Positions 18,001 to 21,000 of a stretch of 38,034 nucleotides of DNA are shown in pieces (the stretch's first letter is position 1; each line of letters starts with the position of its first letter). Origin of the DNA: Chloroflexota bacterium (GTDB lineage: Bacteria > Chloroflexota > Dehalococcoidia > Lucifugimonadales > UBA3495); the NCBI GenBank assembly GCA_027623675.1, contig JAQBVF010000032.1:1-38034 (forward strand). The letters are read 5' to 3'. Made by a program: the position numbers.

Positions 18001-21000
18001 GGAATACAAACTTCTACGTTTCGCTTTGGAGCGGCCAGAAGCTTTAATCAGATCAGCCGCGTCAGCGGTCTTAACCCATCCGTCGCCGTGACGGGCCATA
18101 ATTACCAAAGCCTCGTTGTGTGAGGAAGCTTCGGCAATCTTAGATAGCGGAATATCAGGCGCATCAGGGTGTACCAAAGATCGGCCGTATTCGATTGCCT
18201 TCTGGATAGCGTCTAGATTGGCTTTTGCTGTCTCGAAAGCTCTCTGAGCATCTTCCAGGTCCACGGCTGCATCTTCCATCTGTTTTAGAGCGTTCTCTGC
18301 CCATTCTAGGAGTTTGGCCTCGGCTAGGTTATTTGTAGTCATGTTGTTACACCTTTACCAATCGTACGTACACATCATCAATGATGCGTTGACACCACCA
18401 ACACCTACCTCTGTACAGTGAATGAATCGAGCGGAGAGTAGCGGAGTCGGACCGCAACGCTGTGCACGCTCATCGGTTTTTAAGACCGAGTCCCCATCCG
18501 AGGGGCAATACTCTCCACAAAAGGCCACCGCTGGGGTTATAACCCTAGAAGTCGATTGAACGCCTGCAAGCGTTCGTCAGCAACACGGGGGCCGCACAGA
18601 TAACCGGTGATGAAAGTTGACCGCTCACATCACCGGTCATTATAACATGACAGTACCTAAGCGGTCCCCCGATAATCGGGAGCGAGGGGGGTAATAATGG
18701 CTAAACCGATTACAGAAAATCCAGTTCTTCGCGGAAAGGCGGCTAAAAAGTTCAAAGAGATGTTTCTCTTAAATACAAAGCCTGATCCGGAAAAAATCAA
18801 ACGTCACAAGGAAGATGTGGAAGTCTTTAGGCAATCTACGGATAGATAGACTAGAATCCACGACTCTCATATGCCCAACATGAAAGAGGGGAGCTATATT
18901 AGCTCCCCTCTTTCATGTCTCTGGATATAAATCATAAACCATGAACAAGTGTGTCCCTCCCCCGCCTGGGGGAAAGTTAATAAAACCTTGTGATTCCCAG
19001 AAATCGCGTCCAGGTTTATTATTACGTTCAACGTGAAGTGTTAAGAATTTAACCCCGATTTCGCTTTCGATTGCAGCACCACGAATCCAAGAAAGCATAA
19101 ATTTCCCAATGCCTTGGCGCTGGCTCTGCTCATCAACTCCAAATTGCGCTATCAATACACAAGGTACGTAAGAACGCGTTATTTGTCCTAATCCAAAGCG
19201 GCTTTTCCATGAAGATTCTTCCATTTTGATATTAGACGCGACTAAGGAAGTAAAACCCGCTATCTGCACACCAGAGTGGCATGTCCAAGTCACATTCAAC
19301 CCTAATTCTTGCTGTGCGAATGCATCCTCTTTTAGGAAATCGGAAACATCTTTTTCCCATTCCAAAGAACCGCAACTAAAATTACTCAGATCATGGGAAT
19401 GGGACAGCCGTGTCATCTTAAACAATGACACGTTACAAGCCCCAAACTCTTTATGTGCTCAGATGGAAGCATTGCAGGGTAAGTTACGGTCTATTAGCCC
19501 ACCTAGCTTGTGCAGCCTTTCTAGCCGATGCGCTCCGTTCTTCTGGCGTCATCTTAGCCGCCCTGGCCTTCCCGCCCTTCAACCCGCCTTTCTTACCGCG
19601 TTCTGCCGCGCTGGCGTTCTTGCTCGTGTCAGGTGCCGGTTCGCCGGTAGCTTCCTCGGTAATGAAAGCGGCTAGAGCGTTTACGTCTTTGGGTGGCTTC
19701 TTCTGTTTAGGCATACCTTATTATTTGCTCACGCATCCGGTGCTGTCAATTAGCTTCGGACTCAAATTGACCCACTACCCGGTATTGGGTTGACTTGCAC
19801 GAGTTATACGCTAAACTATGAATAGCCAAATTCAGGACTACTCGGAGGAGCCAAATGGAAGGAAAGTTTCAGATTGAAATTACCTACTGCGTAAGTTGAC
19901 AGCATCACGCTGTCGCCACGTGGATGGCGAATGAATTTTTCCGGCACTATGGCAAGGACGCCGCTATCGCGATTTCCCCTCGCGGCCAGGGCATCATGGA
20001 AGTGTTCTTCAATGGTGAGCGGATATTCGACAAGAAGGGCGAAGGCAACATCTATCCCGACCTCAAGCGGGTCCGGGAGATGCGCCAGGTCATCGATGCC
20101 AAGATTGAGGCTCTCGAGCCCGCTCCGGCCGACGACTAGACCTTCTACCTCACAGTAGTGAACAAAAAAAGGCCCTCCCAACCGGGAGGGCCTTTTTTAT
20201 TTGGTCTGATTCGGTTGACGCGGCAGCGGTTCTAGAGAATCGCTTCCACCTTGGCCCATATCTCCCGGCCAAGCTGTTCGGGCGGTCGTTGGCCGTCTAG
20301 GACTAGCCAACCTTCTGGGTCCGTGGCGGCAAGGGCGCTATACCCCCGGCGCACCCTGCGGTGAAAGTCCGCTGGAGCGTCGTCGAAGTTATCGCCTTTC
20401 CCGCCGCTCTCACCGCCGGTCTTGCGGGCCAGGGCTGTCTCCACTGGAACGTCTAGCAGCACGGTCAGGTCCGGTTCCAGTCCTCCGGTGGCTTCCCGGT
20501 TCAGCCGCTCGATCAACTCCCGGTCCAAGCCCCGTCCGTAGCCCTGGTAGGCCACCGTGGAACTGGTGAACCTGTCGGCAATCACTACTCCGCCCTGTTG
20601 TAAGAAAGGCCGTATCACCTGCTCCACCAACTGGGCGCGGGCAGCTTCAAACAGCATCAATTCGCTGATTGGAGTCATGGGGTCGCCGGACTTGAGTAAG
20701 CTCCGCAGAGCCTGGCCAAGTGGGGTGCCGCCGGGTTCGCGGGTGTGCAAGGCCTGGATGCCGCGACGGCGCATCCGGCGCAACAGAGAACGGGCTTGGG
20801 TGCTCTTGCCCGACCCATCGCCGCCTTCAAAGACGATAAAACAGGCCATCTTACCCAGCCGCCATTATCGCGCCAGCCAAGTTGAGACGCTTAGACCCGG
20901 TAGAACATGACGGCGCGTTCCGGCTCCCGGCCTTGGCTGACCGACGCCACGTTGTAGCGCTGGCCCAATAGGTGCTGCAGTCTGCGAATATAAGAGCGCT

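Follow-up and report, generated by a model that had tools for sequence, protein, structure and literature searches.

Insertion sequence and genes at the locus

The window analysed here, a stretch of 38,034 nt that makes up positions 1 to 38,034 of contig JAQBVF010000032.1 (assembly GCA_027623675.1), harbours a complete IS1-like insertion sequence of 3,057 bp (16724-19780), which encloses a tRNA gene with the anticodon UAA on the minus strand (18432-18516). The element ends in terminal inverted repeats of 19 nt that are conserved across the IS family. The repeat at the 3′ end of the transposase (16724-16742) is 100% complementary to that at the 5′ end relative to the transposase (19762-19780), which starts with GGTAGTG on the minus strand. 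The target-site duplication GGTATT was recognized from the sequence, the family comparison and empty sites as a left (16718-16723) and a right copy (19781-19786), and it appeared as a single copy in the empty site of genome G849 (locus L153), GCCGGTATTAGGTTGACTTG. An exact 6-bp duplication flanked 44 of 50 family elements. Moreover, both flanks were adjacent in 10 of 11 loci of same-genus genomes, the element being present in none of the 11, and the contig joint without the element was found in both DNA runs, which indicates an empty allele in the same samples. Given the perfect repeats, the intact duplication and this empty allele, the insertion appears to be young. The low G+C content noted in a preliminary description of the locus was also observed (0.42-0.53 over 16500-20250 vs. 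0.58-0.68 in the flanks). The tRNA gene, for which that description had already considered carriage by a transposon, is almost certainly a passenger of this insertion sequence.

The intact gene of the IS1-like DDE transposase (275 aa; 16996-17823, minus strand) gave the Pfam scores previously stated (DDE_Tnp_IS1, 32.7 bits with a cut-off of 24.1; rve_3, 26.9 bits), and its NCBIfam IS1 score of 60.5 bits was under the cut-off of 100. A total of 593 relatives of this transposase were found in genome_contigs. Directly before its ATG lies a sigma-70 promoter, TTGACA-17-TATAAT (17830-17858, minus strand), which agrees with the consensus at 12 of 12 positions. The same arrangement was found in metagenome locus L117, where the N-terminus of the transposase is 70% identical to that of the window. 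At the opposite end, ORF76 (19484-19714, minus strand), preceded by a promoter match of 11/12 (19749-19720), encodes a small basic protein that is a conserved feature of the 5′ end in the IS family, as 51 of 80 loci have a homologue located before the transposase and on its strand. Furthermore, the family carries variable cargo of 1-3 kb with mixed toxin-antitoxin and defence genes, and another irregular tRNA directly precedes the transposase in 9 of the 80 members and likewise in IMG/VR copies.

The 1.4 kb previously described as being without a gene call hold two genes on the minus strand, ORF171 (17827-18342) and a gene for a small GNAT acetyltransferase of the toxin type (TacT/KacT/AtaT-like; 18913-19431; Pfam Acetyltransf_1, 7e-8). 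The best 14 PDB matches of the latter were full-length small GNATs, including 'KacT' (5zgn), and W145 takes the place of the presumably catalytic Tyr in the FYERFGF motif of 9ilr. No DUF1778/RHH-type antitoxin gene was found beside it with Pfam and NCBIfam. Moreover, tblastn gave no match to a GNAT homologue in the metagenome loci L114-L119, and none was present in the 80 IS loci. Since the cargo of the family is varied, the pairing of the GNAT gene with the tRNA looks incidental. A further reading frame, ORF50 (18697-18849, plus strand), is convergent with the GNAT gene, had no family match and may not be a gene. In the gap between the two, the repeat search detected a perfect 19-nt palindrome (18878-18918) resembling a bidirectional terminator.

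ORF171 comprises a long N-terminal helix (residues 4-52) and a winged-helix-like domain (residues 66-139), and at least 758 representative relatives of it were found. The Foldseek pdb search gave no match at E ≤ 0.001. In the wide fold search (VIA), the highest Z was 7.2, among winged-helix and coiled-coil rows, and indicates no more than a common fold. Homologues of ORF171 follow the tRNA in L116, L117 and L119. In addition, a tRNA-like gene was located 88-130 nt upstream on the same strand in all 11 ORF171-family loci examined, so that tRNA and protein constitute a conserved cassette; the family was not found in 50 genomes holding the IS. ORF171 and the transposase lie in one frame, with TAA GGC between them. 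A read-through fusion of both was rejected, as a UAA stop codon is not decoded by the anticodon UAA and, in L117, the two genes are separated by a 70-nt spacer with a promoter. Upstream of the tRNA, the leader and putative promoter (18517-18650, minus strand) contain the extended -10 element TGTTATAAT (18647-18639), directly followed by a 13-nt inverted repeat (arms at 18628-18640 and 18600-18612) and more hairpins beyond; the leader fold had a z of -3.3. By eye, a -10 box before a palindrome was also seen in L116, L117, L119, L126 and L127.

Structure, class and relatives of the tRNA

The gene is called tRNA-Leu(taa) by ARAGORN (18431-18516, minus strand), an annotation that is wrong. In the ARAGORN structure, 18432-18516 form eight acceptor pairs and four T-stem pairs, and the ViennaRNA minimum-energy fold is an 8/4 cloverleaf with a long variable arm, which has 5 bp and a 5-nt loop instead of the 4 bp initially given. 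The fold energy was -35.5 kcal/mol (z -3.0), and none of 200 shuffles was as good. The discriminator is G73 (18432), a position occupied by G or U in the relatives, and the 3′ end is followed by GCTCG, CCA not being encoded. The Rfam tRNA-Sec match (RF01852) was reproduced with 47.7 bits, just over the gathering score of 47 (E 1e-6), in a scan whose output left out one lower-scoring same-clan match in the window that may or may not be RF00005 here. With very little doubt, the gene is an (8/4) allo-tRNA, as had been proposed.

Other assignments were ruled out. With U or C opposite the invariant U that precedes the T stem, a 7/5 geometry is impossible. The host has six tRNA-Leu genes, all with 7/5 geometry, A73 and CCA, in contrast to the 8/4 gene with G73 and without CCA; they include the canonical tRNA-Leu(taa) at C43:67109-67194 (7/5, A73), to which attention had already been drawn. 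Of the 50 ARAGORN tRNA sequences of the genome, 46 end in CCA, one fewer than previously counted. A bacterial tRNA-Sec would have the anticodon UCA and a 13-bp (8/5) branch, and the true tRNA-SeC of this genome, with a 6-bp D stem, lies at C23:60570-60666. The D arm of the allo-tRNA has 16 nt, with four pairs around CGGA and G·A and U·U at the ends. The same length was found in G324, G231, G160 and L116-L119, where the arm forms a stem of 5-6 bp and a tetraloop. The D arm is thus less Sec-like, as previously remarked, in its four pairs and U·U mismatch, but not in its length. In an alignment of six UAA genes, 26 of the 28 modelled pairs form in the window copy. Its T loop is UCCGACU, with C55 where every relative has U.

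Among 15 order-level relatives, the acceptor stem was 99.2% paired, with double changes at five of the eight pairs, and all four variable-arm pairs covaried. The seventh and eighth acceptor pairs and the first pair of the T stem covaried as well. In particular, the eighth acceptor pair, for which covariation had been claimed from fewer genes, was AU in 11, GC in 2 and GU in 2 of these relatives, and AU in 3 and GC in 3 of the six UAA-type genes. In the latter set, 93.5% of cells were paired and 10 of 28 pairs showed double changes, while slid controls were 40-51% paired. The seven-nucleotide anticodon loop CUUAAAA (U33, purine at 37) was invariant in all six, while the stems varied with compensation. 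These compensatory changes show selection on the cloverleaf, and the allo-tRNA lineage very probably represents a functional structured RNA.

Relatives with other anticodons exist, as stated before, but they are more numerous than the three genes then listed. Related bodies carry CUA, CAC, CAG, GAG, GAA, CGU, GAU, GCG, GAC and AAG, with at least 11 anticodons on the allo-tRNA body within the order, and about 5% of the sampled species genomes of the order have such genes, including an amber-suppressor form. The G160 match, formerly set aside as no such tRNA, is an (8/4) allo-tRNA(UAA) with a 6-bp D stem, a feature with which relatives are missed by ARAGORN. Three of the other allo-tRNA loci of the order adjoin transposases of other families (IS30-like, IS1595 and DDE_Tnp_1). 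No tblastn match to the element proteins was found within 1.5 kb of the order's other allo-tRNAs, nor any neighbour protein common to these loci. Among the 80 IS loci, tRNA model R1 found no SAR202-type allo-tRNA, the best match (L036, 38.9 bits) being a 7/5 tRNA, and the UAA-tRNA pattern had 0 matches in viral_contigs. The 18-nt terminal repeat was identical in 5 of 6 metagenome loci with allo-tRNA(UAA), and two MITE-like derivatives, L115 (840 bp) and L118 (601 bp), have kept the tRNA and the repeats and lost the genes.

Proposed decoding role and alternative explanations

The host tRNA-Ser genes start with GGAGAG or GGAGGG and carry G73, while the six host tRNA-Leu genes start with GCCGRR or GGGGAA and carry A73. 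The allo-tRNA(UAA) starts with GGAGAG and has G73, as the host tRNA-Ser and unlike the tRNA-Leu. Its first six acceptor pairs are identical to those of the host tRNA-Ser, which, together with G73 and the long variable arm, suggests charging with serine by SerRS. In E. coli, a (9/3) allo-tRNA(UAA) and an (8/4) allo-tRNA(GAG) put Ser at Leu codons, while six allo-tRNA(UAU) variants were inactive (PMC5389517). Judging from its sequence, the allo-tRNA(UAA) is most likely a missense tRNA that accepts serine and reads the rare UUA codon, restrained by its partner. UUA is the second-rarest sense codon of the GC-rich host, TTA accounting for 2.6% of its Leu codons, while the GNAT gene has TTA at 5 of its 15 Leu codons and the transposase gene at 4 of its 24. 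In the transposase, TTA occupies columns where 77 of 81 and 75 of 81 homologues have Leu. Ser at these positions would be harmful to the enzyme, and TTA has clearly not been reassigned. Avoidance of TTA in the cassette genes was considered and dropped: in the AT-rich metagenome loci L116, L117 and L119, 3 TTA were observed vs. 9.4 expected, in a small sample and under a crude model, which for ORF171 and the transposase of the window gave 5 observed vs. 4.8 expected.

The explanation favoured as a whole, whose chances fall somewhat short of even, is that of a genuine allo-tRNA(UAA) in a mobile cassette, inserting Ser at UUA and kept in check by ORF171. On the minus strand, the cassette would consist of the promoter with its palindromic leader, the allo-tRNA, ORF171, the consensus promoter and the IS1-like transposase, within a recently inserted 3,057-bp IS that also bears the GNAT toxin-like gene. 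The tRNA would be transcribed from its own extended -10 promoter and matured by RNase P, 3′ trimming and the host CCA-adding enzyme. Once charged with serine by the host SerRS, it would be a competitor of the canonical tRNA-Leu(UAA) for the rare UUA codon, and perhaps for UUG, causing low-level Leu-to-Ser misreading. The ORF171 protein would most likely bind the palindrome or the tRNA precursor, by which a potentially toxic tRNA would be restrained. The genome has two PolyA_pol-family genes. However, no RNase Z was found over the family cut-off (the genome being 91% complete) and 46 of the 50 tRNAs encode CCA, so the maturation of a CCA-less precursor is not assured.

For the window copy itself, the prospect of being active as a Ser-inserting UUA reader is likewise a little less than even. 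U55 was found in 14 of 14 order-level relatives and in all five other UAA genes, the window copy being the only one with C55. This C was recovered in contigs of both DNA runs, which belong to one study, and is real rather than an assembly slip. Since nearly all tRNAs have U55, impairment of this copy is possible. It could be an inert passenger of an active IS, that is, a member of a functional lineage disabled by the U55C change and perhaps lacking 3′ processing in this host. This was judged unlikely, despite C55 being unique among 20 related genes, the D-stem U·U mismatch and the lack of an RNase Z above the cut-off, since the other helices are intact, the young insertion leaves little time for decay and function could survive a single substitution. 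Nevertheless, allo-tRNA(UAU) genes in a state of decay have been described in transposon contexts (PMC5389517). Another possibility, to which slightly more weight is given while still being unlikely, is that the tRNA-shaped RNA would serve the IS itself, off the ribosome, either as an RNase P processing or insulation signal separating outside read-through from the ORF171 and transposase messages, or as an ORF171 ligand or cofactor tuning transposition. The fixed place of the tRNA in the element is consistent with such a role: in L114, L115, L117 and L118 it lies 76 nt inward of the terminal repeat, and ORF171 and the transposase are invariably located downstream of it. Also consistent are its retention in the MITE-like derivatives, the other irregular tRNAs before transposases of the family and the report of some irregular tRNAs being charged yet unused in E. 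coli translation (PMC5389517). However, an invariant CUUAAAA loop with compensated stems is what a decoding tRNA would need, beyond a processing signal, and the transposase has a consensus promoter of its own downstream of the tRNA. Furthermore, allo-tRNAs of both geometries are active in translation in E. coli (PMC5389517).

The enrichment in TTA of the element genes relative to the host, even at conserved Leu columns of the transposase, would also fit a leucine-charged helper tRNA that supplied UUA decoding to AT-richer genes in a GC-rich host, like phage-borne tRNAs. This is improbable given the G73 and GGAGAG shared with the host tRNA-Ser, as all six host tRNA-Leu have A73, the main LeuRS determinant in E. 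coli, and a canonical tRNA-Leu(UAA) is already available. TTA was, if anything, scarce in the AT-rich metagenome cassettes by the crude model. Moreover, the allo-tRNA(UAA) tested in E. coli inserted Ser (PMC5389517). Finally, the tRNA might be tied to the GNAT gene, for instance as a decoy or substrate of a toxin acetylating aminoacyl-tRNA, in an RNA antitoxin-like role. The likeness to small toxin-type GNATs and the lack of a detected DUF1778-type antitoxin gene beside it agree with this idea. It was considered very improbable, in view of the absence of a GNAT match from L114-L119 and the 80 IS loci, the varied cargo of the family and the Trp at the position of the presumably catalytic Tyr. 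In its favour, allo-tRNAs near toxin-antitoxin systems have been noted (PMC5389517).

Beyond the favoured explanation of a serine-inserting tRNA checked by ORF171, a broader and tentative proposal is that odd class-II-like tRNAs and ORF171-family winged-helix proteins may form an unrecognised self-contained mobile module, a regulated missense or nonsense-suppressor cassette spread across phyla by IS and MITEs. Allo-tRNAs and irregular tRNA polycistrons would be its cargo forms, and the protein a dedicated repressor or tRNA-binding factor, through which a toxic, code-bending tRNA is tolerated or else set free when stress or phage attack occurs.

Comparison with known systems

Allo-tRNAs have been known since 2017 and have a patchy occurrence. 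With this locus they gain a defined vehicle in the form of an IS1-like family, which has conserved ends and a 6-bp duplication, carries toxin-antitoxin and defence cargo and occurs also as MITE derivatives, as well as a conserved protein partner, ORF171. A hitherto vague association with transposons or toxin-antitoxin systems thereby takes a concrete form, in which repression or binding of the tRNA by ORF171, Leu-to-Ser misreading at UUA and a benefit to the element or the host become amenable to experiment. The locus also shows how code-bending tRNAs spread between bacteria, and it adds a Chloroflexota-type marine or aquatic lineage to the known range of the class.

Target duplications of IS1 are 8-9 bp long, and the IS1 family includes forms with passenger genes (ISfinder). 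The window element shares with this family a DDE_Tnp_IS1 match above the Pfam cut-off, and its GGTAGTG ends fit GGnnnTG, an IS1-family trait (PMC6807381). It differs in its single 275-aa transposase ORF without the insA/insB frameshift, its NCBIfam IS1 score below the cut-off, the conserved ORF76 at the other end, the variable cargo of 1-3 kb and the 6-bp duplication. As for the cargo, the GNAT protein shares with the TacT/KacT/AtaT toxins its length, full-length alignment and the N-terminal F.CG and Q/RxxGxG motifs, but with E values of only 1e-5 to 1e-3, no DUF1778 antitoxin gene and Trp in place of Tyr.

The tRNA resembles bacterial tRNA-Sec (RF01852) in the 8-bp acceptor stem, long variable arm, G73 and a partly Sec-like D arm, while tRNA-Sec has the anticodon UCA and a 13-bp acceptor branch instead of UAA and 12 bp. 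Irregular tRNA polycistrons (tRNA0/1/2, PMC5389517) are tandem odd tRNAs, including tRNALeu-like ones with UUA or AGA anticodons and GCU/ACU tRNAs. In the present analysis, such tandem tRNAs preceded members of the transposase family described above as well as ORF171-family genes. The available text of PMC5389517 ties these polycistrons to toxin-antitoxin systems, with no mention of this IS family or of an ORF171 partner. The (9/3) allo-tRNA(UAA) and (8/4) allo-tRNA(GAG) of Silvibacterium bohemicum belong to the same class and were toxic when induced, both inserting Ser at Leu codons (PMC5389517). The former shares the anticodon UAA with the 8/4 window tRNA, although its geometry is 9/3 and it comes from another phylum. 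In the titles and abstract openings of the literature on IS-borne tRNA cassettes and ISMhu11, nothing relevant was found, and the PMC5389517 supplement makes no mention of 'insertion sequence', 'inverted repeat', 'mobile' or 'transpos'. Nor does it contain 'Chloroflex', 'SAR202' or 'Dehalococc', a fact not available to the preliminary description. The GC-rich Chloroflexota-type host thus belongs to a phylum unnamed in the supplement and the available text.

The closest likeness, judged by eye, is to the 'major' (8/4) allo-tRNA(UAA) of the supplementary table of Mukai et al. 2017 (PMC5389517; rows 709-723), with which the window gene shares the 8/4 branch, UU linker, 16-nt D arm, CUUAAAA loop, variable arm GAGCG..GCGUU, 4-bp T stem and G73, mostly without CCA. 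In fact, L118 is a contig listed in that table and aligns with the window tRNA. Compared with this group, the window copy is about 74% identical and has C55 and the D-stem U·U mismatch. The gene is a member of this published group. Since these 'major' (8/4) UAA rows with G73 were already in the supplement, the (8/4) allo-tRNA(UAA) type itself is a published one, while its setting in an insertion sequence and its partner gene are new.

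The tRNA gene and its class

ARAGORN predicted four tRNA genes in the window, including a 'tRNA-Leu(taa)' on the minus strand (18431-18516), which the preliminary description had taken to be an (8/4) allo-tRNA beside a DDE transposase gene. The sequence and the ARAGORN drawing gave an 8-bp acceptor stem (GGAGAGUA/UACUCUCC), a UU linker, a D arm of CCCC/GGGG enclosing UCGGAU, an anticodon arm with a 5-bp stem and the loop CUUAAAA, a 5-bp variable arm, a T arm with a 4-bp stem (GCGG/CCGC) and the loop UCCGACU, and a discriminator G followed by CUCG instead of CCA. The unconstrained minimum-energy fold was the identical 8/4 cloverleaf (-35.5 kcal/mol, z -3.0, equalled by 0 of 200 shuffles). 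The reported Rfam match to tRNA-Sec was reproduced (47.7 bits; gathering score 47). Moreover, the genome (48 contigs, 3.07 Mb, 50 tRNAs by ARAGORN) also encodes a true tRNA-Sec and, as had been stated, a canonical tRNA-Leu(UAA). The lack of an encoded CCA in the window gene held, while the count of CCA-ended tRNA genes had to be corrected from 47 to 46 out of 50. On contig C2 of the same genome (18964-19040), a 'tRNA-Ser(gct)' of 77 nt, whose acceptor stem is broken and which lacks CCA, directly precedes tRNA-Ala(ggc) and looks like a decayed tandem tRNA copy.

According to sections of the 2017 paper (PMC5389517), allo-tRNAs are recognized by an acceptor branch of 8/4 or 9/3 geometry, an extended variable arm, either G or U at position 73, a D arm resembling that of tRNA-Sec, and a wide range of anticodons other than those for serine. 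Rows 709-723 of its supplementary table hold allo-tRNAs of the 'major' (8/4) type that carry the UAA anticodon and G73 and come from metagenomes of aquifers, marine sediments and soda lakes. By eye, these agree with the window gene in the linker, the length of the D arm, the anticodon loop, and the variable and T arms. The class assignment stands, and the gene belongs to a sub-type already published. The phyla that sections of that paper and of a 2020 review name are Clostridia, Proteobacteria and Acidobacteria, and the words 'Chloroflex', 'SAR202' and 'Dehalococc' are absent from the supplement of PMC5389517; the host lineage is not named there and is new relative to the allo-tRNA papers searched.

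Among 401 species genomes from the same order, 27 had BLAST matches, at 33 places including the window itself. Of the others, 16 were full-length genes with the same body (85-96 nt, in 14 genomes) and the remaining 16 were matches of 21-35 nt only. Furthermore, a covariance model built from 15 of the order's full-length genes detected the body in 8 of 151 sampled genomes, four of them missed by BLAST, and only once in the window's own genome. The anticodons on this body included UAA (three genomes), CUA, CAC, CAG, GAG, GAA, CGU, GAU, GCG, GAC and AAG, thus recovering CAC, CAG and GCG as described before, together with further ones. The CUA gene with G73 (locus L007 of genome G324, in the same order; 1501-1585, minus strand) is (8/4) as well and a potential natural amber suppressor. 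Several relatives (L013, L014, L170 and L171) have 8-nt anticodon loops (e.g. CUCGUCAC, CUUGUCAU and CUUAUCAC), read by ARAGORN as four-base anticodons, and may be decayed or frameshift-prone. Near-exact matches of 21-24 nt to positions 74-97 of the window tRNA query (3′ acceptor half and trailer) were found at loci L015, L016, L021-L026, L028-L030 and L033, in many genomes of the order and sometimes several times per genome; these could be short repeats or tRNA remnants.

In the alignment of 15 genes, the acceptor helix was 99.2% paired (41-54% in slid controls), with both-sided changes in five of its eight pairs. Pair 7 was UA in 9 genes, GC in 3 and UG in 3, and pair 8 was AU in 11, GC in 2 and GU in 2, bearing out the covariation claimed for the latter. 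A 7/5 reading was ruled out, since the U preceding the T stem is invariant and faces U or C. A second comparison took six distinct UAA genes, one from the window, three representing metagenome types and two from genomes of the order. Here, 93.5% of cells were paired and both-sided changes affected 10 of 28 pairs, the eighth acceptor pair and the first T-stem pair each being AU in three and GC in three, while the anticodon loop was identical in all six. Such pairing and compensatory changes show selection on the 8/4 fold in the mobile lineage, which very probably encodes a functional structured RNA.

The insertion sequence and its cargo

The gene lies in a low-GC island (0.42-0.53, against 0.58-0.68 in the surroundings) bounded by perfect 19-nt terminal inverted repeats (16724-16742 and 19762-19780). 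A 12-nt direct repeat overlapping them was resolved, by comparing relatives, into a 6-bp target duplication, GGTATT. The neighbouring transposase (16996-17823, minus strand; 275 aa) matched Pfam DDE_Tnp_IS1 above the cut-off, as reported earlier, and NCBIfam IS1 below it, and the element ends, starting GGTAGTG, fit the GGnnnTG motif attributed to the IS1 family in a passage of PMC6807381. Transposase relatives numbered at least 593 in species genomes of many phyla. Among the best 80 of these loci, 50 had both terminal repeats with at most four mismatches from those of the window; these two-ended elements measured 1.35-4.55 kb (median 3.07 kb), and 44 of them showed an exact 6-bp duplication.

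The element is single-copy in its genome. In same-genus genomes, both flanks were directly adjacent in 10 of the 11 loci fetched; none of the 11 contained the element, and GGTATT occurs just once in an empty site that reads GCCGGTATTAGGTTGACTTG. A joint skipping exactly the element was present among contigs from two sequencing runs of a single study, suggesting that filled and empty alleles coexist, to be taken with caution because the short side of the joint has only 18 and 30 letters. Thus, the transposon setting proposed for the tRNA was confirmed, and the allo-tRNA lies inside a complete, young insertion sequence. A 4.6-kb contig of run X1 joined a variant of the transposase start (window 17698-17823; 12 differences) to the repeat-adjacent region (19758), skipping 1,934 bases, which indicates a related cargo-less copy in the same community. 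The insertion point is 6 nt upstream of the -35-like TTGACT of an Rdx/SelW-like selenoprotein gene (19855-20139, plus strand) with a CVSU motif, an in-frame TGA (19897-19899) followed by a hairpin (19908-19929), and a Pfam Rdx match of 6e-14 with the TGA read through.

Along the minus strand from 19780 to 16724, the terminal repeat is followed by an 11/12 promoter match, ORF76 (19484-19714), a GNAT gene (18913-19431), ORF50 (18697-18849, opposite strand) behind a perfect palindrome, and an extended -10 box, TGTTATAAT, directly before a 13-nt inverted repeat and a structured leader (z -3.3). Then come the allo-tRNA, ORF171 (17827-18342) 89 nt further on, a 12/12 consensus promoter match, the transposase and the other repeat. 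ORF171 and the transposase are in one frame with TAA GGC (17824-17829) as sole separator, and the transposase promoter sits within the end of ORF171. ORF76 is a component of the family: 51 of the best 80 loci have a homologue that lies upstream of the transposase and is encoded on its strand. Variable cargo appears between ORF76 and the transposase and also after the latter. For 116 ORFs of 105 aa or more taken from the 50 elements, Pfam matches included HicB, SocA/Panacea, Gp49 with HTH, HTH-Peptidase_M78, P63C, SDH proteases, two restriction-modification pairs, AbiEii-like and STAND ATPases, and others; the family cargo consists of toxin-antitoxin and defence genes. The window GNAT gene fits this cargo. 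Its best 14 PDB matches were full-length small GNATs, one of them named KacT and others being what we take to be TacT and AtaT. It has Trp at the Tyr position of 9ilr, and no antitoxin neighbour was recognisable.

ORF171 had no family above any curated cut-off. It is homologous to the tRNA-following ORFs of three metagenome contigs with allo-tRNA(UAA), L119 (BLASTP 5e-7), L117 (4e-5) and L116, and a profile of six such proteins matched at least 758 representatives (E ≤0.001) in a library of 1.84 billion proteins. Its AlphaFold model (pLDDT 74) presented a 50-residue N-terminal helix and a winged-helix-like domain, for which structure searches returned generic winged-helix and coiled-coil matches only (best Z 7.2). 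A search of 401 genomes of the window's phylum and 401 of the phylum of an acidobacterial IS host found two and five loci of this family, respectively. In all seven, a tRNA-like gene precedes the family gene on the same strand, at a distance of 88-130 nt. Two of these tRNA-like genes are 7/5, namely a tRNA(UAA) with G73 that is accompanied by another tRNA, and an amber suppressor (CUA). One is an (8/4) allo-tRNA(UAU) with CCA, accompanied by a second irregular tRNA, and the others are a body resembling tRNALeu with anticodon AGA, an irregular tRNA(UAC) twice in one genome, and a tRNA of 102 nt. Counting also the window, L116, L117 and L119, the linkage held in 11 of 11 loci, and by eye a -10-like box directly preceded an inverted repeat upstream of the tRNA in six cassettes. 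No mention of the linkage was found in sections of PMC5389517 and its supplement or by a title-level literature search. From this recurrence, the tRNA and the winged-helix protein appear to form a conserved cassette, which we count as the most novel result.

Decoding and activity of the window copy

The allo-tRNA starts with GGAGAG and has G73; host tRNA-Ser genes start with GGAGAG or GGAGGG and have G73, while all six host tRNA-Leu genes have A73 and acceptor stems differing from that of the allo-tRNA. These identity elements point to serine rather than to a leucine-charged helper tRNA. In sections of PMC5389517, two allo-tRNAs tested in E. coli inserted Ser at CUC and UUA and were toxic on induction. 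UUA is indeed rare in the genome, as had been noted, being the second-rarest sense codon (2.47 per 1000 codons, 2.6% of Leu codons), and is present in 1,210 of 2,318 long ORFs. A reassignment of TTA was ruled out, as TTA codons of the element's transposase align with Leu in 77 and 75 of 81 homologues. Given the serine-like elements, the published Ser insertion and a rare, unreassigned UUA, the most likely role would be competition at UUA, with low-level Leu-to-Ser misreading; ORF171, as a repressor or binder, would make the tRNA tolerable.

As to maturation, CCA addition would be possible because the genome has two PolyA_pol-family genes. No RNase Z scored over its cut-off, the genome being 91% complete. 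What speaks most strongly against an active window copy is C55 in the T loop, where all 19 related genes aligned have U; an assembly error was ruled out, since C55 is identical in contigs of two runs. Rival readings would be an RNA element serving the insertion sequence, an inert copy, a leucine-charged helper tRNA, and a tRNA tied to the GNAT gene of the same element. Competitive misreading at UUA is preferred to these; because of C55, an active Ser-inserting tRNA in this very copy is regarded as tentative, somewhat short of an even chance.

Other carriers of unusual tRNAs

A pattern of the UAA-type gene matched six metagenome contigs, one of which (L118) is named in the table of PMC5389517, and five of the six carried the window's 18-nt terminal repeat with zero mismatches. 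L117 presented the repeat, 76 nt, the tRNA, a 150-aa ORF, a consensus promoter and a transposase that shares 70% identity with the window's over its first 123 residues. L115 (599-1438, 840 bp) and L118 (355-955, 601 bp) are MITE-like, as from repeat to repeat they keep the allo-tRNA(UAA) and leader without a transposase, L115 also retaining a truncated 59-aa start of an ORF171-like gene. In L114 and L119 the element is cut by contig ends, and in L116 no terminal repeat was found. The latter contig (L116, 1214-2145) also encodes RNase P RNA (311 bits) and four canonical tRNAs about 1.7 kb from its allo-tRNA(UAA)-ORF220 cassette. Overall, a defined and widespread IS1-like family, together with its MITE-like derivatives, carries the allo-tRNA(UAA) as cargo, a finding that we count as new. 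Odd tRNAs were also predicted by ARAGORN directly before the transposase in 9 of the best 80 loci (anticodons GCU, ACU, CGU, UAG and CGC). Moreover, four IMG/VR loci (L131, L142, L144 and L150) had a tRNALeu-like ochre suppressor (UUA; 86 nt, 7/5, A73) about 135 nt upstream of a same-family transposase with 58% identity. These odd tRNAs before transposases of the family resemble the 'irregular tRNA polycistrons' of PMC5389517.
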